The notes under the pieces are model-generated. The model was given only the letters and a program-made list of their open reading frames with translations. It made no database searches and was not told where the DNA came from. The translations under genes and the position numbers were made by a program. A stretch of DNA of 64,000 nucleotides, taken from the IMG/VR virus record IMGVR_UViG_3300009099_000001; one strand, given 5' to 3'. This stretch comes from a virus. Shown here one piece after another: positions 10,308-62,304 of the stretch; position 1 is the stretch's first letter, and each line of letters begins with the position of its first letter.

Positions 10308-10931
10308 ATGCCCGCTCTCAAGAGAAATCCCCGCAAGTTCACGATGGCGACGCGGCGGTTGCGAGTCATGCAATTACGGACCGCCGGTTACACGCTGCAA
10401 CAGATTGCCGATCAGGTCGGGTGCGGCAAGGCGACGGTCAGCCGGGATCTGGATTTTTGTCTCCAGGATTTGGCGGATCAACAACAGGATCAGACGACGC
10501 AGTTGCGCACGCTGTCCAATTATCTGCTGGACATGCTGTTACAGAAATTTTTGCCGTTGGCCTTGCAAGGCGACGGCAAGGCGGCAGATCGGGTACTGCG
10601 GATCAACAAGCAGAAGCGCGATCTGTACAAACTGGATGTCCCCGAACCCGTCGCTGAGACCGCAGAGACAGAGCGGGATACGACCCAGGGGGCACAAGAC
10701 CTGTTGGGGGTGTTGCTGCAAGCCAATCCGCTTTGGCAGCGGGGCGTATTTGCGACGGCTGACGGCACGTTCGACGAGGTGGGCTATCGCTATTGGAACC
10801 AGCTTGCCCATGATGCGATCCCCGTGAAAATTCCCGGCGACGGCTTTATCGAGCACCATCGGCAATTGACCGCTACGTATGTGGCGGCGCACCCGGAAGA
10901 GTTCGAGCCGCATGATGGATCGCAGACTTGA
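10308..10931 (+). CDS. terS: Terminase small subunit (HTH)
   Basis: 207 aa. N-terminal HTH (LRTAGYTLQQIADQVGCGKATVSRDL) followed by a helical region. Lies directly upstream of and overlapping the large terminase. Confidence 0.6.
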   Translation: MPALKRNPRKFTMATRRLRVMQLRTAGYTLQQIADQVGCGKATVSRDLDFCLQDLADQQQDQTTQLRTLSNYLLDMLLQKFLPLALQGDGKAADRVLRINKQKRDLYKLDVPEPVAETAETERDTTQGAQDLLGVLLQANPLWQRGVFATADGTFDEVGYRYWNQLAHDAIPVKIPGDGFIEHHRQLTATYVAAHPEEFEPHDGSQT

Positions 10932-40299: not shown

Positions 40300-40530
40300 C
40301 TAGGAGGGCCGGTATCCGTGGGGATACCGCTTGACCTCTTCGGTCAAGTCGGCGGAAATCAAGGTCGCGTAGGCTTGGCCGCCGGAACGCAGTTCCTTGT
40401 GGGTCACGGCCATAGCCTCTTGCCAGCGACCCTCGAGCAGAACCGAGCCGGGGTCGGCGTCTACGAAATCTTCGTAGACTTCGATCCATTCCCCGGTCTG
40501 CGGGTTCTTGCGGTGGTGGGTGATGTACAT
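40300..40530 (-). CDS. Small hypothetical protein
   Basis: 76 aa with leader CACACAGGAGTATCGC. Confidence 0.6.
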   Translation of the reverse strand: MYITHHRKNPQTGEWIEVYEDFVDADPGSVLLEGRWQEAMAVTHKELRSGGQAYATLISADLTEEVKRYPHGYRPS

Positions 40531-40562
40531 GCGATACTCCTGTGTGTTTCTCTATGCTTCCC

Positions 40563-40591
40563 ATATTACCACAAGACGGAATCCACTGCAA
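40563..40591 (-). promoter_or_regulatory. Early promoter cassette copy (TTGCAG-N17-TGG-TAATAT)
   Basis: -10 at 40563-40568, -35 at 40586-40591. Confidence 0.6.
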
Positions 40592-40776
40592 GGAGCAATC
40601 GCAGATGGGCCCGAGATTGCCTCCAATGGGTCTCGCCGTCAGCGGGGAGCATAGGGTACAATCCCTGTATCGCCGCGCTCGACACCGGGTATCGGCTAAC
40701 ACTTGGCAGGGTGAAAGCGGTTCCTCCCTTCTCGGCCCGCCGAAGCCCTCGGTCCCGCGGCGAGTCTTCCTCCGTC

Positions 40777-41616
40777 ATGTCGAGCATCTACCGCGCCCTG
40801 TCACTCGGAGCCGGCGTGCAGTCCAGCGTCCTTGCCTTGCGTTTCGCCCAGCAGGACCCTGAGTTGCTGGACCTTGGCTATCCGCCGCCGGACGTCGCCC
40901 TGTTCGCCGATACGCAGTGGGAACCACAGGGAATATACCGTCATCTGGACTGGCTGGAAACGCAACTGACATTTCCCTTGGTCCGTGTCACGGCGGGAAA
41001 TCTCAAGGCCAACGCGACGGCGGGCGTCAATCTCGCGGGCAAGCCTTGGCTGGACATCCCCATCCACTTTCGGGACGGTTCCCGGAAAATGATGCAGCGG
41101 CGGCAATGTACCGCCGACTACAAGATCCGGCCTCTGTACCGCGCATTGCGCAAATTGGCGGGGGGGGTACCGAAACGACCCTTTCCCAAGGACATCACGG
41201 TGGAGATGTATCTCGGTATCAGTTTCGATGAAATCCAGCGCATGAAGCCGAGCCGGGAACGCTGGCTTACCAACCGCTTTCCCCTGGTCGATTTGCGCAT
41301 GACGCGTGCGCAATGCCGTGACTGGTTTGCGGAACGGTATCCCGGCAGGTCCTTGGCGCGCTCCGCGTGTATCGTCTGCCCGCTACACAGTGCTGCCGAT
41401 TGGCAGCATCTACGCACACACGAACCCGCCGCTTGGCGGGAAGCCGTGGAGTTCGATGCCGTGCTGCGAGACGGCCATCCGAGCCGCGGACGTATCCGGG
41501 GAGACATGTATCTCCATCATCGCTGCGAACCCATCGAGGTGGCCGTCGCACAGGATTCGGACGACAGTCCGCCCTCGCTCTTCGATCTGGAGTGCGAAGG
41601 CATGTGCGGCGTGTAG
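40777..41616 (+). CDS. PAPS reductase-like (PP-loop superfamily) protein, phage type
   Basis: 280 aa from ATG 40777. Variant PP-loop LSLGAGVQSSVLAL, QCTADYKIRP, and Cys-rich C-terminus CIVCP...ECEGMCGV. The start is uncertain because an in-frame GTG occurs at 40711. Confidence 0.6.
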   Translation: MSSIYRALSLGAGVQSSVLALRFAQQDPELLDLGYPPPDVALFADTQWEPQGIYRHLDWLETQLTFPLVRVTAGNLKANATAGVNLAGKPWLDIPIHFRDGSRKMMQRRQCTADYKIRPLYRALRKLAGGVPKRPFPKDITVEMYLGISFDEIQRMKPSRERWLTNRFPLVDLRMTRAQCRDWFAERYPGRSLARSACIVCPLHSAADWQHLRTHEPAAWREAVEFDAVLRDGHPSRGRIRGDMYLHHRCEPIEVAVAQDSDDSPPSLFDLECEGMCGV

Positions 41617-42050: not shown

Positions 42051-42100
42051 GCCCCCGGTGGCCATTTGGACGACGGCCTCTAGTAGCCGGGGGCTTTGGC
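42051..42100 (+). ncRNA. Candidate ~50-nt small RNA (TATAAT-N7-nested hairpin-U tract)
   Basis: TATAAT at 42038-42043 in the context GGGTATAATCCCT (compare GGGTACAATCCCT at 40654-40666). GCCCCCGG (42051-42058) pairs with CCGGGGGC (42087-42094), with an inner GGCC/GGCC stem, then TTTGGCTTG. Confidence 0.3.
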
Positions 42101-42122
42101 TTGCGGAATGAGAACGCGCTAG

Positions 42123-42197
42123 GGTCTCGGCGGGAGTCGAACCCGCCCAATTGGATGAAGCCATGCCTATCTGTCGCCCAGACATGTCCATTCGTTA
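42123..42197 (-). other. tRNA-like remnant (T-arm and 3' acceptor only)
   Basis: GCGGG-TTCGACT-CCCGC is identical to the T-arm of the tRNA at 44306-44377. I could not fold an acceptor 5' strand, D-arm or anticodon arm. Confidence 0.3.
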
Positions 42198-42269
42198 CAG
42201 CCCCGCCGGGAATTGAACCCGGTACCTCGCCGTGGACAGTAGCGGATGCAACCGTTACACTTCGGGGCT
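42198..42269 (-). tRNA. tRNA, anticodon GUC (Asp-type), non-canonical C37
   Basis: Hand-folded cloverleaf. Acceptor AGCCCCG/CGGGGCT, D-stem GTGT/GCAT with loop AACGGTT. Anticodon stem CGCTA/CGGCG (A-C at the loop end), loop CTGTCCA. T-arm CCGGG-TTCAATT-CCCGG. No encoded CCA. Confidence 0.6.
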
Positions 42270-42290
42270 TTGGCTCCTATTCCGACAATC

Positions 42291-42578
42291 TCAGATATGG
42301 CGTTGATAGCCCCGGTTGCGGCCTCGGCTGTTGTTCTTGTTGCGTTTTGTGGCCCCGCGGCGTTGCCCTCGGGATCGTTGGCTTTTGGCGGCGGCTTCCC
42401 GCTCCAACTGTTCTTTTCGGCGCTGCGCCTTCGCTTCCCGCAGGGCGAGTTTCGCTGGGCTAATGTCGGGCGGCGTTGCAGACTTAGGTGGGGCGGGGGA
42501 TTTCCGCTTGCTGACCGTGCGCCGAAAATGGCGGCGGTTGCCCTGTTGGCGGGCTTTACTGGCTTTGGGCGTTCGCAT
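42291..42578 (-). CDS. Arg/Lys-rich small protein (paralogue family)
   Basis: 95 aa with RBS AAGGAGGAA. REAKAQRRKEQLEREAAAKSQRSRGQRRGATKRNKNNSRGRNRG. Confidence 0.55.
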   Translation of the reverse strand: MRTPKASKARQQGNRRHFRRTVSKRKSPAPPKSATPPDISPAKLALREAKAQRRKEQLEREAAAKSQRSRGQRRGATKRNKNNSRGRNRGYQRHI

Positions 42579-42837
42579 TTCCTCCTTGGGAACGCAAGTC
42601 GGGAATAGGCAACTCTGCCTCGGCGAAGGTGGCGAAGGTCAGCGACCACAATTCCAGGCCATCAGCCCGCCTATAGCCCCGTAGTTGCAAGAACCGCGGG
42701 TTGGGGATCAGATACTCTTGCAACAGTGCCCCTTGCGCAGCGAGGCCGGCTGCAAGGCTGTCGTAGTACCGCTGTTCCTTACGCGTACGCCCGAAGATGG
42801 GCACGGCAAAGATATCCACGGTACAGGTCTCATCCAT
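42556..42837 (-). CDS. Hypothetical protein
   Basis: 93-aa ORF with an 8-nt overlap with the upstream gene. Confidence 0.5.
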   Translation of the reverse strand: MDETCTVDIFAVPIFGRTRKEQRYYDSLAAGLAAQGALLQEYLIPNPRFLQLRGYRRADGLELWSLTFATFAEAELPIPDLRSQGGNANAQSQ

Positions 42838-43093
42838 CCTCTACTCCTTCGGCATAGCGCACGAACGTCGTCTGCCACAGTTTGCGCTCGTCGTTGAGCC
42901 AGGCCGTCAATTCGCAGTACAGCAGTTGTGGGTCGGACTGGTGCTTTTGGACGAGCGTATTCCAGCAGTCCCACGTATGCCGGCGGACATCGACGCCCGG
43001 CAATGTGCGAAATGTGATCTGCTCTCGATAATGCGCCGTCGCTCCCTCCTGCAGAGCGAAGACATGCACGACGACGGCATCGGGCTTAGGCAT
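42830..43093 (-). CDS. Hypothetical protein
   Basis: 87 aa from ATG 43093 (MPKPDAVVVHVF...), overlapping the upstream stop by 8 nt. Confidence 0.5.
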   Translation of the reverse strand: MPKPDAVVVHVFALQEGATAHYREQITFRTLPGVDVRRHTWDCWNTLVQKHQSDPQLLYCELTAWLNDERKLWQTTFVRYAEGVEDG

Positions 43094-43361
43094 GGGCTTG
43101 CTGCGGCTTACGGCGGCGGACATTCACCCGTTGTCTGGGGGGGGCAAGTATCGACAAGCCCCGCAAATGCTTGGTGTGTGGATGCTTACCCCCGCTCTGT
43201 TTCGCCCGACGTTTCTTGCGATTATGCGCAGTCTGCTCTGCTTGCAGGGCGGTACGGGCGGCTTTGGCCTCTAGCCAACGGCTGGCTTGCGGCAAGGGAG
43301 TGCGGGTACGGGAACGTCTAGGCATTGCCACGGTCCGGGAACCCGTCTTCTTCCTGCCCAT
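43086..43361 (-). CDS. Arg/Lys-rich small protein (paralogue family)
   Basis: 91 aa from ATG 43361 behind GGAGGCAGAG. MGRKKTGSRTVAMPRRSRT...HNRKKRRAKQSGGKH. Starts 30 nt after the suppressor-like tRNA. Confidence 0.55.
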   Translation of the reverse strand: MGRKKTGSRTVAMPRRSRTRTPLPQASRWLEAKAARTALQAEQTAHNRKKRRAKQSGGKHPHTKHLRGLSILAPPRQRVNVRRRKPQQAHA

Positions 43362-43390
43362 CTCTGCCTCCGGTCTGTGGTTTCCAGTCA

Positions 43391-43462
43391 TAGCCCCGAC
43401 GGGAATCGAACCCGCTAGAACCGCGTCTAAAGCACGGCGTGTATCCATTGCACCTCGGGGCC
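43391..43462 (-). tRNA. Suppressor-type tRNA, anticodon UUA (reads UAA ochre)
   Basis: Clean hand-folded cloverleaf. Acceptor GGCCCCG/CGGGGCT (G1-U72), D-stem GTG/CAC with loop AATGGAT. Anticodon stem CCGTG/CGCGG with canonical 7-nt loop C-T-TTA-G-A (U33, purine 37). Variable region TTCTA. T-arm GCGGG-TTCGATT-CCCGT. Confidence 0.65.
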
Positions 43463-43476
43463 TATAGTTGTTCGGG

Positions 43477-43689
43477 TCAACCCCAAGGACCGCCCCATTT
43501 GCTACCGCTGCGCCGTTTTTTGCCCGCCCGTTTATTGCGACGCGCCGTTGTTTTGCGGCGGCTTCGATTCCAGGCTTCCGCCCTGAGCCATTCCTTGCGG
43601 CGCAACTCCTTGGCGGCCGCCCGCGCCTCCTGTTCCGTGCGATGTTCGGTTGCATCTTGGCGCGTGTGCGTTCTGCGCTTCCTGCCCAT
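43477..43689 (-). CDS. Arg/Lys-rich small protein (paralogue family)
   Basis: 70 aa with RBS AGGAGGAAGAG. MGRKRRTHTRQ...AAAKELRRKEWLRAEAWNRSRRKTTARRNKRAGKKRR. Confidence 0.55.
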   Translation of the reverse strand: MGRKRRTHTRQDATEHRTEQEARAAAKELRRKEWLRAEAWNRSRRKTTARRNKRAGKKRRSGSKWGGPWG

Positions 43690-43716
43690 CTCTTCCTCCT
43701 GTATATGATGTCTGGG

Positions 43717-43945
43717 CTATTTCACTTTGCCCCGCGTCCCGTGACGGCGTATCCGCCGCCCGCCCCGATTGTTTTTGTTTCGCCGCGTCGCTCCCCTCCT
43801 GCGGGCGAGTTTGTGTTTGCGCTTGTTTCCCGCGGTGTCAGGCTGCTTGTTCCCGCCGTCGTTGTGCTTTGGCCGCGGCCGCGGCGTGCTTGGCCGGATG
43901 CGCGGTCGGGTCCACGGCATCCGGGTCGGGCACATCATGCGTCAT
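43717..43945 (-). pseudogene. Frameshifted member of the Arg/Lys-rich family
   Basis: ATG 43945 behind AGGAGGAAAGC opens a 35-codon frame (MTHDVPDPDAVDPTAHPAKHAAAAAKAQRRREQAA). The family C-terminus (ARRRGATRRNKNNRGGRRIRR) continues in another frame (track ORF 43717-43938). Confidence 0.4.
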
Positions 43946-43974
43946 GCTTTCCTCCTATGCTGGATTTCGTCAGG

Positions 43975-44041
43975 GGCCTATTACGGGGATCGAACCCGCC
44001 GCCGTCCCAGGAACAGAGGGACTGCGCCGCCCAGGATAGGC
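43975..44041 (-). tRNA. tRNA-like gene, possible anticodon GUU (Asn-type), truncated D-arm
   Basis: Acceptor GCCTATC/AATAGGC (one C-A mismatch). Perfect anticodon stem GTCCC/GGGAC with loop T-CTGTTCC-T. T-arm GCGGG-TTCGATC-CCCGT. Only ~12 nt lie where the D-arm should be, so it may be a pseudogene. Confidence 0.3.
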
Positions 44042-44305
44042 CGCGTCGTCAGGGCACGATTTCAAGATGCTGGATTGAGGTCGTCATATGTGTGCTCCTG
44101 TAGTCCTGTGTTTCAATCCCCCGCCGCCGGGAATCGCTCCGGTCGTCGCCCCATATGACAACTCACGGACCCACGGCGGGGGAACCCTCTTCGTACCTTG
44201 CAGTACTGTCGCGAAACGGGGCGCTACCGTCTCCTATGCCCAGCGGAAATCAATAGGCACGGCCCTCCAGATGCCAGGATAAAACCAGGGCGACTTGGGC
44301 GCCCA

Positions 44306-44377
44306 CAGTCCCGGCGGGAGTCGAACCCGCTACCCTGCGCGATACAGACGCCCATGCAGCCGTTACACTTCGGGACT
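44306..44377 (-). tRNA. tRNA, anticodon GUA (Tyr-type, short variable arm), non-canonical U37
   Basis: Acceptor AGTCCCG/CGGGACT, D-arm GTGT-AACGGCT-GCAT. Anticodon stem GGCGT/GCGCA, loop CTGTATC. T-arm GCGGG-TTCGACT-CCCGC. The 5' end abuts the stop codon of 44378-44818. Confidence 0.55.
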
Positions 44378-44818
44378 TCATTCGGTCTCCTGCTGCGGAA
44401 ACGACGGCGGTAGATTGCGCACAATGCGCACAGTCTCCACACTGAGAGCGATCAGACGTCGCAGATGGTCAATCAACCTTGCCGGCTCGTCGGCGAACCA
44501 GGCGTTGGGGTCATTCACGATCCCGCTCTCCTTGTCTTGACGGATGTAGAGGCGATCCCGTGCCCAATCCAACGGCGAGCGACCATTGACGATATAGGCA
44601 TGAGCGTCGTCGGGAATGTCTCGCAGCGTGACATGCGGCGTTACGTGCAGCACACTGCGGTCAGCATTGCGTCGCCAATCGTGCCCGCAATCCCGTTGCT
44701 GCTGCTCAGCCGCACAAAGGGCACAGCCCCACCGCATCGGACGCATACCCAGACGATACGGCTCGACGGCATCGGGATCGACTTCCAGGCGCATAGGGCG
44801 CGGTGTCGATTGGGTCAC
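44378..44818 (-). CDS. Stand-alone protein resembling the distal part of the Type ISP restriction-enzyme C-terminal specificity domain
   Basis: 146 aa with GTG start in a GTGA overlap. YIVNGRSPLDWARDRLYIRQDKESGIVNDPNAWF...LIALSVETVRIVRNLP. Confidence 0.5.
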   Translation of the reverse strand: MTQSTPRPMRLEVDPDAVEPYRLGMRPMRWGCALCAAEQQQRDCGHDWRRNADRSVLHVTPHVTLRDIPDDAHAYIVNGRSPLDWARDRLYIRQDKESGIVNDPNAWFADEPARLIDHLRRLIALSVETVRIVRNLPPSFPQQETE

Positions 44819-45258
44819 AGCAACCTGGCTTGGGTTACTTCACCGATAGCGGCGTGATCTAGAGATCGATAGATGTCTTCGATATGCACGAGTGAGTCAT
44901 ACTGACACCAAGCAGTCTGAATCTGCTTCCAGTGTTTGCCGTCAGCGGGAAAATGCACCTTCACCCAATCTCGCTGCGCGTCGTAATCCCCCTCCAACTC
45001 TACGACAAGCCAATCCTGAAACGTCCGTGAAGGTTGCATCAGCGCCGTCTCGGGCGGCAGCACGAAATAAGGGCCCCGCCGAGGATCCAACCGGGAGTTA
45101 AACTCTATGATCGCGCGTTTGACTTGCGCAGTGAGCTGCGCCTTGTCGTAATTCCACAGCCACGCGTCGCAGTTGGTCTTAACCCCGTTGGAAAAGCACC
45201 GAAATACGGCTCCGCCTGATGCTGTTTCCTGAACACTTTTTATGGTAGACATCCGCAC
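44815..45258 (-). CDS. Stand-alone protein resembling the proximal part of the Type ISP C-terminal domain (paralogue 2)
   Basis: 147 aa. VFRCFSNGVKTNCDAWLWNYDKAQL...IIEFNSRL...FQDWLVVE. Paralogous to 45264-45710. Confidence 0.45.
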   Translation of the reverse strand: MRMSTIKSVQETASGGAVFRCFSNGVKTNCDAWLWNYDKAQLTAQVKRAIIEFNSRLDPRRGPYFVLPPETALMQPSRTFQDWLVVELEGDYDAQRDWVKVHFPADGKHWKQIQTAWCQYDSLVHIEDIYRSLDHAAIGEVTQARLL

Positions 45259-45263
45259 ACTAT

Positions 45264-45710
45264 TTATAGCAACGGATCTTGGCGCAAGACCCCGGCCGCT
45301 GTTTGGTCTAAGGCGTTCAGCACCGCCTTCATGGGTACGAGATCCTCAAAGCGACACCACCCTGTAGATGTGTTTGTCCAATGCCGCCCGTCTGCCGCAA
45401 ACCTCACTTCGACTGCATCGCGTGTGCGGTCGTAACCGCCTACGATTTCCACGATCAGCCAATCTGCAAAATTCCGCGCCGGATGAGAGATGTAGGCATT
45501 GGGAGGCAGCATCCAATGGCTTCCCCAACACGCATCCAGAGCTGCGTTGTAGGCCACGATTTGCGCTTTGGTCTGAACCGTCTGGGCACCGAGATCATAG
45601 TTCCAAACCCACGCGTCGTTGTTTGTGCATACGCCTCGACTATAGACACGGAAAATCACGTTGGGGTTAAGGGCTTCTTCCCGGGCCTGAGATAGCGACT
45701 TCTTCGGCAT
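45264..45710 (-). CDS. Stand-alone protein resembling the proximal part of the Type ISP C-terminal domain (paralogue 1)
   Basis: 148 aa. IFRVYSRGVCTNNDAWVWNYDLGAQ...IVAYNAAL...FADWLIVE. Starts 3 nt after the csf3-like stop. Confidence 0.45.
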   Translation of the reverse strand: MPKKSLSQAREEALNPNVIFRVYSRGVCTNNDAWVWNYDLGAQTVQTKAQIVAYNAALDACWGSHWMLPPNAYISHPARNFADWLIVEIVGGYDRTRDAVEVRFAADGRHWTNTSTGWCRFEDLVPMKAVLNALDQTAAGVLRQDPLL

Positions 45711-45713
45711 CGT

Positions 45714-46532
45714 CTACAACTCCCGCATAGCCCCTAGCCAGTCCATATCGGCGGCTTCGTCCAAATGCATGACGGGCCGGGGGTTGTCCGTCCCGTCATG
45801 GGGCACGTCTTCCGCCCCGACCAACTGTCGGGCCGTGCGATACGGGCTGGGCCGGCAATAGGCGAACCAGGGCAGATGCCAGTAGGGGGGCGTCCACGGC
45901 AGATATTGATAGACGGGCGGGAAGACGTCGAAATCGTCGCCCCGGATGTCTCGGCCATGCAGATGCGCAAAGGGCACGGTACGTCCCGTCAGAACCAAAT
46001 CTCCCGCATCCGTGGGTGCTTGGATAGGCGCCACCTGCCATTGGGCGACGCGGCCACGGCCCGCCTTGGCATCGGCGCCGACATAGGTGATGATTTGGAG
46101 TTCCGCCTGCAAGCGTTCCGGGTCGGCGAGAGCCAAGCACCCGATACGGGCAGTATGCGTCAAGCGGCGGCTCAACCGCTTCACCTTCCAGCGGCCCACC
46201 TTTTTCTGGACATTGCGCTGGCCGGGCCGTACCCGATGCATGCGATAGTCGGGGATACGGGTATGGGTGTAGACCGTGGAGTGCGTCACGGGCGTCTCGG
46301 GGACCAAAGGCGTACATGCCCAGAGAGGTTTGCCCTCAAGGGTATCCCGCAAGAACAAGGAGGGCAAATCGACAATCTGCAACCCGGCCTGCTGTGTGGA
46401 ACGGTCGAAGTAGAGGAATGACAGCATGCTGTCCAACTGCAGACTGTCTGCCGGGGCGTGCGTAATGTACGGCGTGATGAGCCGGGCTTGCACGTGTACG
46501 AGGGTGAAGGTCTGGGCACCTTGGAGAGACAT
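45714..46532 (-). CDS. csf3: Cas5-like RAMP protein (Csf3-like), type IV
   Basis: 272 aa. N-terminal beta-strand FTLVHVQARLITP, LDSMLSF, glycine-rich loop GADAKAGRGRVAQW. 1-nt TGATG overlap with the cysH-like gene. Confidence 0.55.
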   Translation of the reverse strand: MSLQGAQTFTLVHVQARLITPYITHAPADSLQLDSMLSFLYFDRSTQQAGLQIVDLPSLFLRDTLEGKPLWACTPLVPETPVTHSTVYTHTRIPDYRMHRVRPGQRNVQKKVGRWKVKRLSRRLTHTARIGCLALADPERLQAELQIITYVGADAKAGRGRVAQWQVAPIQAPTDAGDLVLTGRTVPFAHLHGRDIRGDDFDVFPPVYQYLPWTPPYWHLPWFAYCRPSPYRTARQLVGAEDVPHDGTDNPRPVMHLDEAADMDWLGAMREL

Positions 46533-47296
46533 CAGAATGGCGTATAGCCCGACTCGAACTTTTTCATGTCAGGTACCCGCTGCAATACGGCGGTCCAGGT
46601 CTGAGGCCACAGTTGACGAATGGCATCCACGGCCCCTGCTTGGATGGCGGGCAAATAGGTGAAGGGGCCGACTCGCTGTCGCTCCGGGGGAATGCCGGCA
46701 GCGCGCATGCGGTCGTACACGGCATTGTAGGGCACGGCATAGGCCGCCAGATAGGCCCAGATATCCGTGTCGGTCCAATCGTGCAACGGATTGCATACCA
46801 GCTGCGTAGATTTCCGCTGATACGCCGGTCCATGTCGCACGAAATGCCACGCCCGGTCTTGCGACTCGGTAGCCCGCAGTCCTAGCAACAAGCCTCGATA
46901 CCCCAACCGCACCCCGAGGGGCACGCCGTTGGGTTCCATGACCTGCAACGGCGGGTCAGGGTCGGGCGGCGGCCAATGGTCGAATTCCACGCCCGGCGCA
47001 ATCTCGTACCGCTGACGCACGGCCACATGGTGCAACAACGGCGTCTGGGCGACGAAGCGCCGGGTCTCGGGCAACACCGTGAACTCTTCGTCCTGATAGA
47101 GACCCGGCAATTGAGGGTCGATTTGGCGGGCCATGTGCAGCAGCACCGTGCTGTCCTTGCCGCCGGAAAAGGCAACTACGGTATCCGGGGTCTCGGCCAA
47201 GTGCGTACGGAGCAGGTCTTGGGCTTGCTGTACGCGCCGCCGGAAGAGATCCGTGCGGCTATGGGCTTGATAGCCGAGTCGGGTCAAACGGTCCAT
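46532..47296 (-). CDS. CysH-like PAPS reductase family protein (type IV-B accessory)
   Basis: 254 aa from ATG 47296, 2 nt after the csf2-like stop. Canonical PP-loop VVAFSGGKDSTVLLHMA. The 373-aa track ORF start is rejected. Confidence 0.7.
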   Translation of the reverse strand: MDRLTRLGYQAHSRTDLFRRRVQQAQDLLRTHLAETPDTVVAFSGGKDSTVLLHMARQIDPQLPGLYQDEEFTVLPETRRFVAQTPLLHHVAVRQRYEIAPGVEFDHWPPPDPDPPLQVMEPNGVPLGVRLGYRGLLLGLRATESQDRAWHFVRHGPAYQRKSTQLVCNPLHDWTDTDIWAYLAAYAVPYNAVYDRMRAAGIPPERQRVGPFTYLPAIQAGAVDAIRQLWPQTWTAVLQRVPDMKKFESGYTPF

Positions 47297-47298
47297 CG

Positions 47299-48144
47299 TC
47301 AGCTCAACTGCACGCGGTCCGTACCGAGGGTCCCGTCCAATAGGCCCTGCTGCATGGCGGCGTGATGCGTAGCGAGATGGTCCTGCCACGGGCCGATGTC
47401 CGTCGGCCCCTCCAACTGCTGCCAATGCACGCGGCCCCGACCCTGGCTGGCCCGCGCCCCGATGTATTGGTCCCAGGCTTGCAGTGCTGCCCTGCCCGCG
47501 GCGACGACTGCCGGCGTAGACCAGCGGTCGAAGAGCAGCTCGACCCAGATCTGGGTGCCGGCGGCCAACGTCTCGTACTGAAACAGCATTTGATTGCCGC
47601 TGGCGACGTCGCCCGTGCCCCGGGTGCGCACTTCGTCTTGGACCAGATCCCAAATGCTGATATCGGGCACCTCGAGTTCGGGGGCCAGCAGTCCCAATTT
47701 TTCTTGATTTTCCCGACAGACGACCAGAGCCAACACTTTGAGGTCGCTGCGGGGGAGCAGGAACGCGTCTACGCTGCCGCCGAGCAGCCGGAAGTTCGGA
47801 TAGAGATCGAAGATCTGTTGGGCGTACTCGTTTTCCGCCGCCGGCGCCTTGCTGCCCTGCTTGAGCGAGCCGCCGGCATACAGCAGATTGACCGCACTCT
47901 GGCTCAAGCCGCCCACCGGAATTTCCAGCTGTTGCAGCAGCCTGTCGGCCAAAGGCGTGCGCAGCATGACGCTGCGCAAGGCGTTGGCCGACAGGCAGGG
48001 CATGCGCACGGGTACGCCGTCAATCACCTCCAGTTGCCGCATAAAGAGCGTGGTGTTGCCTTGGGTGGACAGCGTATCGCCGTGGGCCACCGGGGAAAGG
48101 GTTTCGAGCCGCAGCGTGATACGCGGCGGGGCTTCCAGGGTCAT
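47299..48144 (-). CDS. csf2: Cas7-like RAMP protein (Csf2-like), type IV
   Basis: 281 aa. ITLRLETLSPVAHGD, MPCLSANALRSVMLR, FRLLGGS, C-terminal G-rich loop ARASQGRGRVHW. ATGA overlap with the cas11-like gene. Confidence 0.6.
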   Translation of the reverse strand: MTLEAPPRITLRLETLSPVAHGDTLSTQGNTTLFMRQLEVIDGVPVRMPCLSANALRSVMLRTPLADRLLQQLEIPVGGLSQSAVNLLYAGGSLKQGSKAPAAENEYAQQIFDLYPNFRLLGGSVDAFLLPRSDLKVLALVVCRENQEKLGLLAPELEVPDISIWDLVQDEVRTRGTGDVASGNQMLFQYETLAAGTQIWVELLFDRWSTPAVVAAGRAALQAWDQYIGARASQGRGRVHWQQLEGPTDIGPWQDHLATHHAAMQQGLLDGTLGTDRVQLS

Positions 48145-48533
48145 GAGGCGTCGTCTCCTTGGCGGCGTTGCCGCTTGTGGGTATCGTGGACATGCCGCGC
48201 CAACAGGATCAACGTCTGCGTCTGGGTCCGGTACAGTTGCAGCGCATCGGGCGACAGGTCACGTAACAGGGCGAGCAGCGTTTCGGGGCGACCCGCCGCC
48301 GGCCAACGCATATGCGCCGCCAGCTTGTCCCAGAAAAGACGGGGCCGGTCGCTCTGCAAAGCCGCAATGCGTACCCGGTCTTCGAGCCGCACGAAGCGGG
48401 TAGGACCCTCGAGCACGCCCACTCCGTCGTAGGTGTTGTACTGGTCGAGGGCATAGGCCAGCAGGGACACGGCTTGTTGTTCCGGCGGCGTCAAATCGGC
48501 AGTCAGGTCGGTGTCAAGGTCACTAATGTTCAC
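48141..48533 (-). CDS. cas11: Cas11-like small subunit (by position, size and helical composition)
   Basis: 130 aa with GTG start. Helical, basic C-terminus. Sits between the csf1-like and csf2-like genes. Confidence 0.45.
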   Translation of the reverse strand: MNISDLDTDLTADLTPPEQQAVSLLAYALDQYNTYDGVGVLEGPTRFVRLEDRVRIAALQSDRPRLFWDKLAAHMRWPAAGRPETLLALLRDLSPDALQLYRTQTQTLILLARHVHDTHKRQRRQGDDAS

Positions 48534-48638
48534 TTTCGGATTCCTTGGTTCAGTGTTTCACCGGTGTCTGCCCGACCAGAGTCGGCTTGTACGACACCTC
48601 CCCACCTAACGACGCCGTGACACGCGCCGGAACTGAGC

Positions 48639-49346
48639 CTACTCCTCGGCATAGGCCATGAGCAACGCGGGGATGAAATCGGCGTCGTCGCGGCGGGCTG
48701 CCACTTGCATGGCGTCGGCTTCGTGGCGCCAGCGCAGATAGCGGGCCGGCGTCTTCCATTGCCCGCGCAATTCGCTCTTCGTCACGCCCTGCGCCAGCAA
48801 CCGGCTCATGCGCTGTACGAGGTCGTCTGTGCGCTGGGGATGCAGGGCGATGCGCTGCGAGATGTCGTAATGCAGCGCATGCACGTATACAGCGGCCTGA
48901 GACGTGAATTCGACCAACGGCCACAACCGCGGTTTGGTGTCTGCCGTCATCAAGCCCGCCCCGTAGCAACGAGGCGTCATGGTCGGCAAGAGCGTTTTCC
49001 ATGTCACCCTGTCGGGGTGCGGTGCGAACGTCGGCCAGACCACCGACCCGTCCTGTACCCAGAACGAGCGATTGCTGGTCATGCCTTTGGCTTTGGTATG
49101 CCCATAGAACCAGGCACACGCGGGGCAGATGTACCGGCTGAAGCGCAGATTTTCCGCATGCCGGGTGAAGGTGGACGTCTCGATTTGGGTCACGGGCACG
49201 GCTTGCGCCGTAGGCCGGCCACAGGTCGCACAAGGCGTATCCGGGGGCACGTCTTCCGGCTGATGTTTCGCCGCCAGGGGCGGGCAGCCCAAGGCTTCCC
49301 AGACGGCCTGGGATACGGAACGGGGCAACGCGGAAGACGACAGCAT
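48639..49346 (-). CDS. csf1: Csf1-like large subunit (two CxxC pairs), type IV
   Basis: 235 aa. PCATCGR...YICPACAWFYG zinc-ribbon-like pairs near the N-terminus. First gene behind its own promoter. Confidence 0.5.
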   Translation of the reverse strand: MLSSSALPRSVSQAVWEALGCPPLAAKHQPEDVPPDTPCATCGRPTAQAVPVTQIETSTFTRHAENLRFSRYICPACAWFYGHTKAKGMTSNRSFWVQDGSVVWPTFAPHPDRVTWKTLLPTMTPRCYGAGLMTADTKPRLWPLVEFTSQAAVYVHALHYDISQRIALHPQRTDDLVQRMSRLLAQGVTKSELRGQWKTPARYLRWRHEADAMQVAARRDDADFIPALLMAYAEE

Positions 49347-49351
49347 AGCCC

Positions 49352-49379
49352 TTTATAGCATACAATCGCCGAGGATCAA
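49352..49379 (-). promoter_or_regulatory. Promoter of the type IV-B-like operon (TTGATC-N16-TGC-TATAAA), near-leaderless
   Basis: -35 at 49374-49379, extended -10 TGcTATAAA with hexamer at 49352-49357. ATG 49346 lies only 5 nt downstream, with no SD. Confidence 0.5.
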
Positions 49380-49398
49380 AATCAGCCTAGGAACCCGA

Positions 49399-49426
49399 CC
49401 AGGCCCCCGGCATTGCCGGGGCCTGG
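49399..49426 (-). terminator. Hairpin (weak terminator) separating the upstream operon from the csf1 promoter
   Basis: CCAGGCCCCGG-CAATG-CCGGGGGCCTGG with one bulge. The U-tract is distant. Confidence 0.35.
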
Positions 49427-49443: not shown

Positions 49444-49893
49444 TCAGGGCTCGGCATAGCGCGCCTTCAGGGAGGGACAAATCAGCTGAGACCAGATTTT
49501 CGTATGCAGCGCACTCGCTGCGGCGAGGCCCCGTTGCAAGTCTTTGCCGTCGATATGCGGCGCAACCCGCCACCCCACACAACGCAGCCGCGGCTTCTCG
49601 GGCTGGAGCGCGAGCAAAGGACAGGGGATACCCGGCGGCGACCAGGGATCGTGCCCTAGCCGCAGCCACCACCCCGTGTACGACAGCTGGCGGCTCGCAT
49701 GCGGCGACAGCAGATAGGTCAGCACGGCGTCGAGACTGGTCTCCAAATACCTGATATGACTCTCGGGACACGTACCTGTCGAGTCACCGTCGACGAGGCG
49801 TATTTCGGGCGACATCGTGAGCGCGTTGAACAAGCCGGCGTCGTTCCGCCCACCAGTGCCCCAGCGCCAAACAGCAGGAATGTGCGTCAGCAT
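49444..49893 (-). CDS. Hypothetical protein
   Basis: 149 aa from ATG 49893, which overlaps the upstream stop (ATGCTGA). Confidence 0.5.
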   Translation of the reverse strand: MLTHIPAVWRWGTGGRNDAGLFNALTMSPEIRLVDGDSTGTCPESHIRYLETSLDAVLTYLLSPHASRQLSYTGWWLRLGHDPWSPPGIPCPLLALQPEKPRLRCVGWRVAPHIDGKDLQRGLAAASALHTKIWSQLICPSLKARYAEP

Positions 49894-55337: not shown

Positions 55338-56444
55338 TCACCAACCCGTAGACACGAAGTTGTCCGGTTTCGTCGCGGGATCGTCTACGCGGGACATTTC
55401 GTCGAGCAAAATCTCGCCGTCGTATAAGCGGATCCGCACGGCCACGTATCCCGCCTGCATTTCGACCATCTGCGCACAGCGGCGAAACTCGTTCCAGGCA
55501 CGCGTTTCGTCGTCGGTGCGCAACCACGGAGAGACCCGGCCCGGCGGCGTCGCTTGAAAGTCTGCCTCAACTACGATCCGAAAGCGGTCCTTGCGCGGCC
55601 CTAGGCGCTCATCCGGCCTCCCCAGCAACGCGGCGACAGCATGCTTCACCGTCTCCCGCGTCAGGCGCCGCGGCGTGAAATACGCTTCGTGCTCCCGACG
55701 TCCCCAGTTCGAATTGCGGAACAGAAACGTACCCGCCGGGATCGGGCGGGGATACGCGACGTTGTCCACGATCTCGGCCTCCCTGAACTCGGCCACCGCC
55801 GAGACGGGGCAAATACCCACGATGCGGTCCAAGATCCCCGGCGGCTTATCCTGCGCGCGCTTGACGGCTACGCTGTCGACTGCCGCATAGAATCCCTGGT
55901 AGTCCAGCAGGCTTGCGCCGACAAAGCCCGGAATCGTGACGTCCATATCCGCGTAGAAGTCCTGGCCGCCGGGCAACGGCGGCAAATCCAAGATCGTAGT
56001 CGCAATGCGCCGCCAGATGTCGTGGGGCACATCGGGCACGTCGAGGCGAGACTGCGCCATCCCGTCGGCGCGGCAGAGAGCCGCATGCAGGCTCGGCGTA
56101 GCGCGAAAGCGCCCGGCGACCAAATTCGTGCGCGTCGCCATGCGCGGATACCCCGCATGGACCAGCGGCGACATGCCCCACGGTGCACGCGCCTCGAAGC
56201 ACCACGCAAAGATCCACCGCATCAGCAGCTGTACAATCTCTTTGGCCAGGGCCGGGGCATCGAGATCGCCGGGGTCTGACGCTTGGTCGAATACGGCTTG
56301 CCCGTACACCTCCACGGCGTGCCGTACCGCGGCCAACAAGCGTTGTTCATGCGCGTGGTCTTGTGCAGACTCTGCGTCCGTCGCCGCCCGGAGCGCGTCC
56401 CAATCGGCGGGCGTCCATTGGCTCAGATCGTGGCTAGACGTCAT
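55338..56444 (-). CDS. Hypothetical protein translationally coupled to the integrase; distant resemblance to the helical N-terminal region of Type IIG/ISP/BREX-type methyltransferases
   Basis: 368 aa from ATG 56444 (ATGA overlap with the integrase stop). LLMRWIFAWCFEARAPWG and HEAYFTPRRLTRETV blocks. No SAM-binding or NPPY motif follows. Confidence 0.35.
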   Translation of the reverse strand: MTSSHDLSQWTPADWDALRAATDAESAQDHAHEQRLLAAVRHAVEVYGQAVFDQASDPGDLDAPALAKEIVQLLMRWIFAWCFEARAPWGMSPLVHAGYPRMATRTNLVAGRFRATPSLHAALCRADGMAQSRLDVPDVPHDIWRRIATTILDLPPLPGGQDFYADMDVTIPGFVGASLLDYQGFYAAVDSVAVKRAQDKPPGILDRIVGICPVSAVAEFREAEIVDNVAYPRPIPAGTFLFRNSNWGRREHEAYFTPRRLTRETVKHAVAALLGRPDERLGPRKDRFRIVVEADFQATPPGRVSPWLRTDDETRAWNEFRRCAQMVEMQAGYVAVRIRLYDGEILLDEMSRVDDPATKPDNFVSTGW

Positions 56445-57360
56445 CGGGGGACCGTGCCCCATCGCCCGGCCTCCATTTCTTGCAAGAGCGGGTCTTTCGA
56501 CCAGGCGGCTTGGACCACGCGCTGCAGGCGTTCCCGTCGCCGCGGGCACCACGGCATATAGTATCGCTCCGTAGTCTTGATGCTGTGATGGCCGAGCAGC
56601 ATGGAGACGTCTTCCATCGACGTACCTGCTTGCAACAACTCCACGGCGAAAGTATCCCGAAATCGATGACTATGCCCGTCGGAAATGCCGGCCTTGCGAA
56701 ATATCGTCTTCAGCCGATCTTGCCATAAGCCCGAAATGCTGCGGCGCATGCCCTTGCCCGACCAAAAATAATAGCGGGCCGAGGTCGGCGGAAACGCCGC
56801 CAAGGCCGTCATTACTTGCGGGGCCACGGGCATCATGACTCCAACCCCCGTCTTGGTGCGCCGGACCGTCAACGTCCCGTCCACGATGGCGCCGTGCACG
56901 GGAAGCGTACACGCATCCCCTACGGCCAAGCCCGTGGTGCGCATCAGCAGGCACAAGGCATAGTCACGGGGCGAAGTCTGCCGGGCCACGTCCAAGATGC
57001 GCTCGATCTGGGGGGGGGAAACGCCCGCGTGGGGCGTTGTTGGAATTTGGGCGAGCGCAATCCCGCCGCCGGGTCGCGAGGCAGTTTGCCCATCTCGACG
57101 CAGAAGCGAAAGAACCGCTTGACCTGCCCTAGCATGATGCCTTGGGTACTCGCTGCTTGATGCAATTGATTGCGCCAGGCGCGTACCATCTCGACCTCGC
57201 AATCGGCCAAGCGGGTAATCCCTTGGGCGGCGGCATACTGGCGGAACGGCTCCAGCGTACAGCGATACCGCGTCACCGTGTCCGCGCACAGATTACGGCC
57301 CCGCAGATCCTCGTAGAAAATCTCTATCGCAGCCTCGAGCGTAACGTCAGTCGAACTCAT
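56441..57360 (-). pseudogene. int: Tyrosine integrase interrupted by a frameshift at a C9 homopolymer
   Basis: N-terminal SAM-like domain in frame A (57360 down to the run). Catalytic domain in frame B (HSHRFRDTFAVELL, LLGHHSIKTTERYY) down to 56441. The frames meet at G9 (+ strand 57010-57018). One extra C, or a -1 slip, gives ...RAFPPPQIERILDVARQ... Confidence 0.8.
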
Positions 57361-60022: not shown

Positions 60023-60558
60023 ATCGCCAACTCCGCCTGGGTATGGGTCAAGACGAACCCCGCCCGATGTTCCCCCTTGGTTCGCCGCGGGTGCTCTTGC
60101 AGCACGCCCCGCCGCTGGAGGGCACGTCCCGCTTGCCGGACGGTCATGCGGGACGTACCGAGCTGCATGCCTATCTCCGTATACGACTGCCACACTACGC
60201 GGTTCTGCGTGAGCAGCCAGTCGTACAGCAGATTTTCGCTGCGGGTCCAGAAGGCCGCACGGAGGGCAGACGCACGGCCCCGCGCCGTCCAATAGGGCAA
60301 GCCGTACAGATGGCCCCGGGCATGCTTGGGTCTACGCGTTACCCGCAGGCAGCGCGCAGCGCTCAAATAGGCGACTTGCGGCGCCATCATTTTGGGATGC
60401 GACGAGACGGCAGCGGCGATCTGTCGATACGTCTGGGGCACCTCTACGCCCGGCTCGCCCTCGCACAACATCTCAATGTGCCGGAAGACCAACCAGGCGA
60501 CTTGACCGAGACTGACGCGACTGCCGTGCGGGGAGGGCGGCAACGAGTCCGCCATCAT
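60019..60558 (-). CDS. Winged-helix protein (paralogue family flanking dnaN), copy 2
   Basis: 179 aa. ATGATG overlaps the dnaN stop. ...AAFWTRSENLLYDWLL...WQSYTEIGMQLGTSRMTVRQAGRALQRRGV. Confidence 0.6.
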   Translation of the reverse strand: MMADSLPPSPHGSRVSLGQVAWLVFRHIEMLCEGEPGVEVPQTYRQIAAAVSSHPKMMAPQVAYLSAARCLRVTRRPKHARGHLYGLPYWTARGRASALRAAFWTRSENLLYDWLLTQNRVVWQSYTEIGMQLGTSRMTVRQAGRALQRRGVLQEHPRRTKGEHRAGFVLTHTQAELAI

Positions 60559-61757
60559 CCTTTCCCGGCACGCGGTGGGGACATGGGCATGATTACATGC
60601 AGAAAGTCGAACTCTGCCTGCGGCACGGGACGCAAGACGCCCGGCCTGCCGGCTGCCGCCAATCCGATTTCCAATTCCGCCGCCCCCACATGTTGGAGGA
60701 AATCGATGACGTACTGGCCGTTGAACGCAATCTCCAGTGCAGGGCCGTCGACCCGTGCCGGGATCTGGTTCGTATTTGCGCCCCGTTGCGCACTTTCCGC
60801 CGAGACTGCAATTTCGCCGTCCGGATGGAGGGTCTGTCGGGGGGCACACGTCAACGAGACCGTACCGTGGGACTCCCGCGAAAACAAGAACGCGGCCCGC
60901 ACGCTTTGGTGCAAATCGTCCGTCTGCGCGTGGACCCGCGTCTGCGTCTCCGCATCCTCCGGGATAATCCGCCGATAGTCGGGGAACGTGCCGTCGATCA
61001 ACTGGCAGATCAGCAACACCCGGTCGAACGTCCCGCCGTCATGCCCCCGACCCCCCAAGGCAAAGTGGATCTGGTTGCCGTTGGTCGTGGTCGCGAGGCG
61101 GATCGGCCGACTGCGATCGGCGTCGCCCCAGAGCCGAGCCAATTCCGTCAAGGCGGTCGCTGGCACCAAGGCCCGCACTTCCGGTGTGCTCGCCGTCGTC
61201 GGCGCCGTGCAGACGCTGAGCCGGAAGCCGTCCGTGGCCGCCATCGTCAAGGTGTCGTTCGCAAAACGGAAATCCACCCCCGCCAGATTGGGACGCTCTG
61301 GCGTCTTGGCCGCGGCGAAGACGGTACGCTCGATCATGCCGCGCAAGCCCTGCAGATCCAATTGCACGGTCTCCCCGTCGCCAGCGATCTCCGTCGGGAT
61401 TTCCGGGAATTCCGCGGCGGCCACCGTATGAAATGCCGCCTGATAACTACCGCACTGTACTTCCAGTTGCCGGGTTTCGTCCTGGTATTGCAGTACGATT
61501 TTGCGGTCCGCAGGCAGCAGGGCGACAAAATCCGTCATCAGACGCGCCGGGACGGTCACGGCGCCCGGGGCCAGCACATCGCAGTCCACCCAGACGTTGA
61601 GGCTAATGTCCAGATTGGTGCTGACCAGCCGGATACCGTCCTCCGACGCCTCGAGCAGGATATTCTCCAAGACGGGCAATGTGGGCCGGCTGGCCACGAT
61701 CCTACCTACATGCCCTAAGACCTTCTGTAGGTACTGTGCCAAAATCCGAATGTGCAT
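60555..61757 (-). CDS. dnaN: DNA polymerase III beta sliding clamp
   Basis: 400 aa from ATG 61757 behind AGGAGTGGATCT. LQKVLGHVGRIVASRPTLPVLENILLEASEDGIRLVSTNLDISL and three-domain length. Confidence 0.8.
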   Translation of the reverse strand: MHIRILAQYLQKVLGHVGRIVASRPTLPVLENILLEASEDGIRLVSTNLDISLNVWVDCDVLAPGAVTVPARLMTDFVALLPADRKIVLQYQDETRQLEVQCGSYQAAFHTVAAAEFPEIPTEIAGDGETVQLDLQGLRGMIERTVFAAAKTPERPNLAGVDFRFANDTLTMAATDGFRLSVCTAPTTASTPEVRALVPATALTELARLWGDADRSRPIRLATTTNGNQIHFALGGRGHDGGTFDRVLLICQLIDGTFPDYRRIIPEDAETQTRVHAQTDDLHQSVRAAFLFSRESHGTVSLTCAPRQTLHPDGEIAVSAESAQRGANTNQIPARVDGPALEIAFNGQYVIDFLQHVGAAELEIGLAAAGRPGVLRPVPQAEFDFLHVIMPMSPPRAGKG

Positions 61758-61767
61758 AGATCCACTC

Positions 61768-62304
61768 CTATGTGGCCAACTCGGCGTCATCGCCGAGAGT
61801 CAAAACAATGTGGTTGCGGGAAATCACGCCGCGACGTTCCAGCGCCGCCAAAGCGTCGTTAATCGTGGCCTGCGAGTACTCCAGGGCCGCCGCCAACTCT
61901 TGTTGAGTTTGCGCCCGCTCCTGGGGTCCCCGCAGAAAATGGGTATATAGGCGGTCTTGCGCCGGCGTCCAAAAATGCCGACGCAGATAGGCGGCGCGGG
62001 CCCAGGGCGTCCAAGCCGGCGTCGCATAGCGGTGGGGCCGACAGTCGCGTCGCACTCGCAACCCGCCCGACGCTTCGAGGCGCCCGATTTGCCAGCTGAC
62101 GAAACTCTCGTTGCTGTACAGCGGTTGCGCCAATTCTTTCAGCGAAAATTGCACCCACCCGTCGGAACTCTCGGCGCACGCTGCTTCGATGCGGTCAAAA
62201 ATGCCCCGCGCCAACTGCCCGAAGGTCAAGACGGACCAAACAGGCGCAAGAACATCCCTGTCACGAAGGCGCAGAACACCAAGGTGCCTATGCCATATCG
62301 CCAA
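61768..62304 (-). CDS. Winged-helix protein (paralogue family flanking dnaN), copy 1
   Basis: 178 aa with TTG start directly after the upstream stop. ...RRHFWTPAQDRLYTHFL...QQELAAALEYSQATINDALAALERRGV. Confidence 0.55.
   Translation of the reverse strand: MAIWHRHLGVLRLRDRDVLAPVWSVLTFGQLARGIFDRIEAACAESSDGWVQFSLKELAQPLYSNESFVSWQIGRLEASGGLRVRRDCRPHRYATPAWTPWARAAYLRRHFWTPAQDRLYTHFLRGPQERAQTQQELAAALEYSQATINDALAALERRGVISRNHIVLTLGDDAELAT

Follow-up and report, generated by a model that had tools for sequence, protein, structure and literature searches.

A divergent, array-less type IV-B-like CRISPR-Cas effector module carried by a tailed phage

The stretch of DNA analysed here (the window) comprises 64 kb of the virus record IMGVR_UViG_3300009099_000001, whose source contig has 96,351 base pairs (bp), so that ~32 kb falls outside the window. 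Its minus strand carries five consecutive open reading frames (ORFs) that an earlier interpretation made from the letters alone (the sequence-only reading) had described as an array-less effector module of CRISPR-Cas type IV, subtype IV-B. The ORF map bears out all five ORFs, their coordinates and every motif quoted for them:

48639-49346, minus strand: csf1, 235 amino acids (aa), with the CxxC pairs CATC and CPAC
48534-48638, minus strand: csf1-cas11 intergenic gap of 105 nucleotides (nt), from the ORF map
48141-48533, minus strand: cas11, 130 aa, GTG start
47299-48144, minus strand: csf2 (cas7), 281 aa, with the motifs ITLRLETLSPVAHGD, MPCLSANALRSVMLR, FRLLGGS and SQGRGRV
46532-47296, minus strand: cysH-like gene, 254 aa, with the PP-loop FSGGKDST
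45714-46532, minus strand: csf3 (cas5), 272 aa, with AKAGRGRV and a C-terminal extension of ~45 aa

The G+C content of third codon positions (GC3) lies between 0.74 and 0.81 across the five ORFs, values typical of real genes in DNA of 61% G+C such as the window, which supports coding for all five. The cysH-like gene is the ATG-started, 254-aa portion of a longer TTG ORF, whose upstream extension has a non-coding composition (GC3 of 0.50 vs 0.74). Regarding the junctions, the overlaps of 1-4 nt that had been claimed throughout are present at cas11/cas7 (4 nt) and cysH/cas5 (1 nt), whereas the other two of the four junctions are gapped, by 2 nt between cas7 and cysH and by 105 nt between csf1 and cas11. 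In relatives the csf1-cas11 gap measures ~50-70 nt by tblastn coordinates. A structured RNA within the 105-nt gap was considered and rejected, the fold being no better than that of shuffled sequences (z=+0.5).

Profile searches with Csf1, Cas11, Csf2, Csf3 and PAPS_reduct matched every protein to its expected family, and alignments of homologues were built for Cas7 (A1), Cas5 (A2), Csf1 (A3) and CysH (A4). The product of 48639-49346 was correctly called Csf1: it matches the PADLOC profile typeIV_Cas8/Csf1_0_IV (E=5.1e-11, residues 16-193) as well as two additional PADLOC Csf1 profiles, and its cysteines C39, C42, C74 and C77 are invariant across the 15 homologues of A3; tblastn places its homologues at the equivalent site of related loci. 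The Cas11 call on 48141-48533 is upheld by three PADLOC typeIV_Cas11 profiles (E=2.6e-7, 1.9e-6 and 1.8e-4); its homologues, 31-41% identical, mostly have csf1 on one side and cas7 on the other in the related loci (tblastn). For 47299-48144, identified as Cas7/Csf2, the PADLOC typeIV_Cas7 profile matches over the full length (E=5.9e-31), NCBIfam cas7_csf2 gives a weak match (2e-4), and the family profile A1 matches the solved type IV-B Csf2 (7jhy) with E=6.3e-12. An AlphaFold2 model of this protein has a mean predicted local distance difference test score (pLDDT) of 88 and a predicted template modelling score (pTM) of 0.84. With it Foldseek returned 170 PDB matches at E<=0.001, the 50 best consisting entirely of chains of type IV Csf2 or type III Csm3, with template modelling scores (TM) up to 0.68; 7xg1_G is matched with E=7e-11 and TM 0.62, and 7jhy_a with E=1.4e-7. 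As modelled, Cas7 has the type IV/III Cas7 fold.

The second repeat-associated mysterious protein (RAMP), encoded by 45714-46532, is a Cas5/Csf3 as had been proposed. Residues 8-221 match positions 3-209 of the 222 in the PADLOC profile typeIV_Cas5/Csf3_0_IV (E=1.3e-16), the family profile A2 finds solved Csf3 proteins over the full length (8rc3_F, type IV-A, 3.3e-13; 7xfz_B, 8.4e-10), and members of the family retain both the G-rich loop and a WTPPYW motif. The sequence-only reading had allowed that the two putative RAMPs might fold as something else; this is not so, since the Cas7 model matches Csf2/Csm3 and the Cas5 profile matches solved Csf3. The C-terminal extension of Cas5 (45714-45850, ~45 aa), which ends in DWLGAMRE, is shared only by the homologue in a Dehalococcoidia metagenome-assembled genome (MAG; locus L001, 11590-11727, DWFEAMRE), and this sequence likeness hints at a common ancestry of the two modules.

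The fifth protein, from 46532-47296, is CysH-like, with the predicted FSGGKDST present and matches to Pfam PAPS_reduct (E=1.7e-16) and PHROG 2302 (E=4.9e-28); weaker PADLOC matches are to BrxP (3.4e-9) and DndC (1e-7), both confined to the shared core, and also to SspD. Across the 14 homologues of alignment A4, residues S44, G46, K47, D48, S49, E144, S145 and R148 are invariant, so that the family keeps an ES..R motif besides the PP-loop SGGKDS. No conserved cysteine occurs among these 14 homologues, and the single cysteine of the window protein is not conserved in the family. The CysH of published IV-B loci has as its signature a PP-motif without the catalytic cysteine, and is predicted to be an ATP alpha-hydrolase/adenylating enzyme (PMC8175902). 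A family with an invariant PP-loop and no conserved cysteine fits this description.

The absence of cas1, cas2, cas6, DinG and an array from the 64 kb, noted in the sequence-only reading, was borne out by repeat searches and profile scans. No CRISPR array was found in the window by TRF, by a direct-repeat search (repeat family of at least 20 nt within 120 nt) or by Rfam, which detected tRNAs only and no CRISPR-DR family at its gathering score. The other window ORFs, all scanned with PADLOC as ten concatenated pseudo-proteins and many also with Pfam or PHROGs, yielded no Cas1, Cas2, Cas6/Csf5, DinG, RecD or Cas10. Gene content lacking DinG (IV-A, IV-E), RecD (IV-D) and a Cas10-like HD large subunit (IV-C) leaves IV-B and no other type IV subtype. 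Type III is disfavoured by the absence of Cas10 from the window and by a large-subunit slot occupied by the 235-aa Csf1; the match of the window Cas7 to a Csm3 profile is weak (9.6e-3, PADLOC). The Dnd, Ssp and BREX type 4 systems are likewise distinct from this locus, where CysH has no conserved cysteine and the partner genes considered (DndA/B/D/E, SspA-C, PglX and the like) are absent from the window. We therefore regard the locus as a complete array-less subtype IV-B effector module with the order csf1-cas11-csf2(cas7)-cysH-like-csf3(cas5), an assignment drawn from sequence comparison to which we give a probability of about 0.9.

A solitary CRISPR repeat was also considered, formed by GGAGCGATTCCCGGCGGCGGGGGATTGAAAC at 44140-44110 (minus strand), with a GC hairpin followed by GGATTGAAAC and with the classic tag ATTGAAAC at its end, and was rejected as a likely chance occurrence. 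The 44110-44140 element scores 16.1 bits against Rfam CRISPR-DR9 (cut-off 45), GGATTGAAAC occurs a single time in the window, and the 22-nt core has one metagenome match, on an unrelated 2.9-kb contig, at an ordinary intergenic site that precedes a start codon and is not part of an array.

The window Cas7 has 49 homologues in a database of 5.8 billion clusters, the best of them (self excluded) with 49% identity, and when 15 billion proteins are clustered at 50% it stands as its own representative, with no relative above 50% identity. With its family profile, 1,107 representatives are matched at E<=1e-3, of which 124 reach E<=1e-30. A large sister group of Cas7 homologues, 430-520 aa long, has the Csf2-like domain (E=1e-59 to 1e-29 against the profile) preceded by a fused N-terminal extension of ~200 aa. 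In IMG/VR, 22 viral contigs carry a Cas7 relative, and tblastn with the five window proteins located the complete module in 16 related loci (L001-L014, L016 and L019, three of which are duplicate places), with identities of 41-50% for Cas7, 24-33% for Cas5, 27-37% for Csf1, 31-41% for Cas11 and 23-40% for CysH. The usual order in these relatives is csf1-cas11-cas7-cas5-(0-2 genes)-cysH, the exception being L016, where csf1 follows cysH. The position of cysH between cas7 and cas5 had been listed as a departure from the known layout; the order is real and not unique, as csf1-cas11-cas7-cysH-cas5 is also found in the more distant viral loci L022 (confirmed by PADLOC), L023, L025 and L026, and it thus represents a known kind of variation.

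Neighbourhoods of the relatives are varied. In L003 and L004 nin-like genes (RusA, DUF1367, YbcO) precede the module, and genes for HNH, TerS, TerL, protease, capsid and portal proteins are on its other side; in L028 it is immediately upstream of GP3_package and Terminase_3, and in L030 upstream of TerL, Portal_Mu and Mu-F. HNH genes stand on one flank in L029, with endolysin, holin and tail genes on the other, while in the Dehalococcoidia MAG (L001) the module belongs to an element that has a NikA-like gene, and adjoins an integrase. Overall, the module is directly upstream of terminase/portal genes and in the same orientation in L003, L004, L028 and L030, and also in L011, L018 and L027, a placement that suggests late-operon expression in these relatives. 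Comparison of the loci shows five genes that move together as a unit across many unrelated phage backbones. Other collections gave few or no relatives. A tblastn search with Cas7 against 72,556 PLSDB plasmids gave one match, on a Thermococcus nautili plasmid (26% identity), which places the window clade remote from the plasmid clade. INPHARED contained neither Cas7 nor DNA matches, and a DNA search of 5,426 complete E. coli genomes with a lambdoid-type relative found none. Among the matches listed for GTDB species representatives, in a scan swamped by a glycine-rich pattern, at least two were MAG fragments; BFVD gave one weak match only, and a word-indexed search for Cas5 homologues returned only the window Cas5 itself.

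Location in a virus had been presented as a further departure from the known layout. This does not hold, given the 22 IMG/VR contigs with relatives and the published occurrence of type IV and IV-B on prophages, free phages and archaeal viruses (PMC7038947, PMC8730458, PMC10848311, bioRxiv 10.1101/2023.08.02.551345). Reviews mention type IV systems in both prophages and free phages (PMC7038947, PMC8730458), and IV-B modules with CysH are described in the Bathyarchaeia viruses 'Fuxiviridae', where a mini-array is present (PMC10848311), and in a Methanoperedens virus (bioRxiv 10.1101/2023.08.02.551345). The identification is correct, and the locus adds a new, very divergent example to the virus-borne IV-B already known. 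The phage and prophage loci (L003, L004, L028-L030 and the IMG/VR loci L006-L027) have the same five-gene module as the window; the closest Cas7 relatives differ in having cas7-cas5-(0-2 extra genes)-cysH, in many cases directly before the terminase genes. The Fuxiviridae and Methanoperedens virus loci, compared by their published descriptions, share csf1, cas11, csf2, csf3 and a cysH-like gene in a virus with no adaptation module, and a counter-defence role has been proposed for them. They differ in belonging to archaeal viruses, and the Fuxivirus locus has a two-repeat mini-array and CysH beside Csf3 at the module end, whereas the window has no array and the order cas7-cysH-cas5.

The IV-B system of Mycobacterium sp. 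JS623 (7JHY) resembles the window module in having csf1, cas11, csf2, csf3 and a cysH-family gene, with no array, Cas6, helicase or adaptation module. The window Cas7 model aligns with 7jhy_a with TM 0.54/0.64 and a structure-based identity of only ~21%. The mycobacterial system is borne by a megaplasmid in Actinobacteria, whereas the window module is in a phage whose host is probably a member of Chloroflexota, and only the latter has cysH between cas7 and cas5. Type IV-A complexes (7XG1, 8RC3) give the best fold matches for the Cas7 model (TM 0.61-0.68), and IV-A Csf3 is the best sequence-profile match for the window Cas5. Nevertheless IV-A systems have the DinG helicase, Cas6/Csf5 and an array and usually no Cas11, in contrast to the window, where DinG, Cas6 and array are missing and Cas11 is present. 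DndC, SspD, BrxP and assimilatory CysH share the PAPS_reduct fold family and the N-terminal PP-loop with the window CysH, which differs from them in lacking the C-terminal catalytic cysteine motif and in having no adjacent Dnd, Ssp or BREX partners.

Several observations weigh against the IV-B assignment or limit its reach. Pfam returned nothing for four of the five proteins, and the NCBIfam csf2 and csf3 matches are far under their cut-offs; this near-silence for the four Cas proteins points to high divergence. The Csf1 family profile had no sequence match among solved PDB structures, and Cas11, with a best E of 2.6e-7, is the weakest-supported of the five assignments. The module is known here from its sequence and one predicted structure, that of Cas7, and an array or a cas6 gene could lie in the ~32 kb of contig beyond the window. 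In the solved IV-B complex Csf1 and Csf3 were unresolved and CysH was not included (PMC7937560). No function for IV-B is assigned in the literature searched to 2025-26, and the 2025 classification lists the subtype as uncharacterised; any account of mechanism is for this reason an extrapolation. The silence of Pfam could also be taken to mean that the zinc-finger protein and both RAMPs are members of another characterised family and share with Cas proteins a likeness at motif level only. We consider this extremely improbable, as it is already contradicted by the type IV profile, structure and PDB matches: matches to four independent type IV profile families fall in the expected slots, Cas7 has a structural match, Cas7 and Cas5 both have PDB profile matches, and Pfam Csf3 is recorded for homologues in L001, L003, L028, L029 and L030. 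It is also very unlikely that the module is a non-functional remnant, either in decay or carried as selfish cargo, that at present does nothing for the phage. Such an origin would agree with the missing array and nuclease and with the strong divergence from reference Cas profiles, the nearest Cas7 relative being only 49% identical. It is opposed by the five intact ORFs with GC3 of 0.74-0.81, by the Csf1 cysteines, the Cas7 and Cas5 G-rich loops and the CysH PP-loop, which are invariant among homologues of 25-50% identity, and by the retention of the five genes together in many independent phage backgrounds.

Regarding what the IV-B module might do, a starting point is the Mycobacterium complex, the only one for which filaments of Csf2 and Cas11 on RNA are known; the RNA is heterogeneous and ~55-60 nt long (PMC7937560), and the sequence-only reading was correct on its heterogeneity. 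By analogy, Csf2 and Cas11 of the window would polymerise into a Csm-like double filament on ~55-60 nt of non-CRISPR RNA, with Csf3 and Csf1 capping the filament ends. The CysH-like enzyme, judging from PP-loop chemistry and the absent cysteine, would act as an ATP alpha-hydrolase that adenylates a substrate, plausibly nucleic acid held by the filament, and would not reduce a sulfonucleotide. Rather than provide adaptive immunity, the module would tie up small RNAs or nucleic acids or mark them chemically, and the phage may deploy it in lytic growth as counter-defence or to compete with other mobile elements. From carriage by phages and the recurrent position before packaging genes, which points to a lytic-cycle role, we infer a function that serves the phage. 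This combination of RNA filament, adenylation and counter-defence is a tentative proposal, possible and somewhat short of even odds. A different use of the same proteins would be the borrowing of guides, in which the complex loads host CRISPR RNAs (crRNAs) made from host arrays by host Cas6 and silences competitor or host DNA or RNA without cleavage, as in IV-A. Guide borrowing has been proposed for array-less IV-B (PMC7038947, PMC7937560), and a mini-array is present at the IV-B locus of one archaeal virus (PMC10848311). The window has the full set of genes for a Cascade-like surveillance complex, and its Csf3 shows conservation from end to end with the IV-A Csf3 that binds the crRNA handle. 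The mycobacterial complex, however, did not load co-expressed I-E crRNAs (PMC7937560), and neither Cas6, a helicase, an array nor a mini-array was found in the window, whose one repeat-like element is unconvincing; we judge this use unlikely.

The position of the relatives raises another explanation, namely that a ribonucleoprotein brings the CysH-like enzyme to phage nucleic acid at about the packaging stage, and that the adenylated intermediate leads to a protective mark by which progeny DNA or transcripts escape host restriction. It draws on the modules directly upstream of packaging genes in the same orientation (L003, L004, L028 and L030), on further loci with TerL-like or portal-like families just downstream, on the nearest defence relatives of the CysH-like protein, which are the DNA-modification enzymes BrxP, DndC and SspD, and on the presence of CysH together with the Cas genes at almost every related locus. 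Phosphorothioation chemistry is excluded by the missing catalytic cysteine (PMC8175902), and the solved complex binds RNA, not DNA. Moreover, ~33 kb separate the window module, in the non-structural arm on the minus strand, from the terminase gene, which is on the opposite strand. The late-operon site in lambdoid phages also houses unrelated cargo genes, which further counts against such late action, and we hold it to be quite improbable for the window. A broader version, in our opinion equally doubtful, would have the phage-borne modules form a clade almost confined to viruses, to which their occurrence in 22 IMG/VR contigs and in prophages and their near-absence from 72,556 plasmids, 50,697 deposited phage genomes and 5,426 E. 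coli genomes may point. This clade would act late beside packaging genes as an RNA-scaffolded machine, in which the Csf filament presents nucleic acid to the cysteine-less PP-loop enzyme; adenylation would then either protect phage nucleic acid or disable host guide RNAs. If true, this version would give IV-B its first role, non-immune and serving the virus. Of all CRISPR-Cas subtypes IV-B has the least understood function; it lacks both array and nuclease, and its obligatory CysH-like partner is unexplained. What the present locus contributes is a comparative view of a virus-associated IV-B clade, together with candidate experimental systems, since the temperate lambdoid-like relatives, among them L003, L004 and L028, are perhaps more tractable for the study of IV-B function than the uncultivated window phage.

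Signals and genes that flank the module are the following:

49384-49405, minus strand: terminator-like hairpin with T-rich tail, between the gene at 49444-49815 and the motif before csf1 (consensus scan, pattern match only)
49352-49360, minus strand: extended -10-like TGCTATAAA, 5 nt before the csf1 ATG (consensus match only)
44378-45710, minus strand: three restriction-enzyme-like genes (45264-45710, 44815-45258 and 44378-44818)
44306-44377, minus strand: tRNA starting 1 nt past the last stop of the operon, anticodon loop CUGUAUC with anticodon GUA (Rfam 38.3 bits vs gathering score 29)
44288-44304, minus strand: terminator-like hairpin after the tRNA (consensus scan, pattern match only)

Upstream of csf1 there is a further likely gene at 49444-49815 (GC3 0.74). 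The sequence-only reading had given the module a promoter of its own; TGCTATAAA before csf1 is a candidate, from which a leaderless or near-leaderless mRNA would be possible. A two-hexamer sigma-70 scan did not call this site, and the 9-mer has two copies in the window vs 0.76 expected by chance. The second copy, at 45263-45271 (minus strand), overlaps the stop of 45264-45710 and ends 4 nt short of the GTG of 44815-45258, an arrangement like that at csf1 which could reflect an internal leaderless promoter or a coincidence. The label 'early operon' given to the module is an inference from its place in the non-structural arm, and the hairpin at 44288-44304 is a possible end of the transcription unit.

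The sequence-only reading had the operon continuing into unusual genes and tRNAs. Such genes and a tRNA do follow cas5, and they are not conserved partners of IV-B. From cas5 through the three downstream genes the junctions are a 3-nt gap, a 5-nt gap and a 4-nt overlap, and the genes are probably co-transcribed; their GC3 of 0.61-0.66 is below that of the module. In order, they match Pfam Type_ISP_C with 8.4e-3, 1.3e-4 and 8e-13, and PADLOC REase_MTase_IIG with up to 2.7e-22. The products of 45264-45710 and 44815-45258 are 41%-identical paralogues that match the first ~40 positions of Type_ISP_C, while that of 44378-44818 matches the last ~70 and has a C-terminus like LlaGI, LlaBIII and DrdV (E~1e-13). 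By these matches the trio looks like a split or fragmented specificity domain of a restriction enzyme, and it could serve as an anti-restriction decoy. A role for the three Type ISP/IIG-like genes as IV-B accessories was rejected: no homologue was detected by tblastn in L001-L027, and they are accordingly treated as locus-specific cargo. The tRNAs were rejected as partners as well, since only 2 of the 25 related loci have a tRNA in the fetched flanks and none has it adjacent. The window thus differs from its relatives in both respects. A second restriction-enzyme-like fragment is found in the same phage arm at 55338-56552 (minus strand): its 404-aa product has no Pfam match, and residues 199-315 match positions 439-555 of the PADLOC Type IIG profile (E=2.7e-11).

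The tRNA at 44306-44377 folds with a 7-bp acceptor stem and a T arm, and was not called by ARAGORN. It belongs to a cluster downstream of the operon (42100-44400, minus strand) that is made up of tRNA genes together with T-arm elements resembling tRNA. Three tRNAs reach the Rfam gathering score, at 44377-44306, 43462-43391 and 42269-42198, the last with an odd anticodon loop, and two more fragments bearing GGGTTCGAnTCCC lie near 43975-44042 and 42125-42150. The tRNA at 43462-43391, also called by ARAGORN, has the anticodon UUA and is of the ochre-suppressor type. A UAA-reading tRNA is unexpected here because TAA is an ordinary stop, ending 23 of the 68 rough gene calls in the window. Amid the tRNAs there are also small, extremely basic ORFs with good ribosome-binding sites (43689-43477, 43361-43086 and 42577-42290).

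The gene content of the window identifies it as that of a tailed phage. It encodes TerL at 10879-12327 (PHROG 979, 6e-84), a tape measure protein of 2,065 aa, a major tail protein and head-morphogenesis proteins, together with an M23 peptidase, a tyrosine integrase (56441-57289) and a DnaN sliding clamp (60555-61790). As it encodes an integrase, the phage is probably temperate. No close relative was found among the 50,697 deposited phage genomes of INPHARED. The host is likely a member of Chloroflexota, since all DnaN relatives that bear names are Anaerolineae or Anaerolineales and the nearest genome-encoded relative of the module is that of the Dehalococcoidia MAG (L001), whose CysH is the closest at 40% identity. 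Elsewhere in the window, an ORF of 1,528 aa at 139-4725 (plus strand) contains several tandem repeats of 129-345 nt with 73-89% identity (TRF), and its product is probably a repetitive fibre or surface protein. Finally, a second gene of the PAPS-reductase family, of 432 aa (PADLOC SspD, E=8e-10), lies at 40318-41616 (plus strand), at the end of the structural arm and in a position unrelated to the IV-B CysH; its product has the PP-loop-like motif SLGAGVQSS and a cysteine-rich C-terminus.

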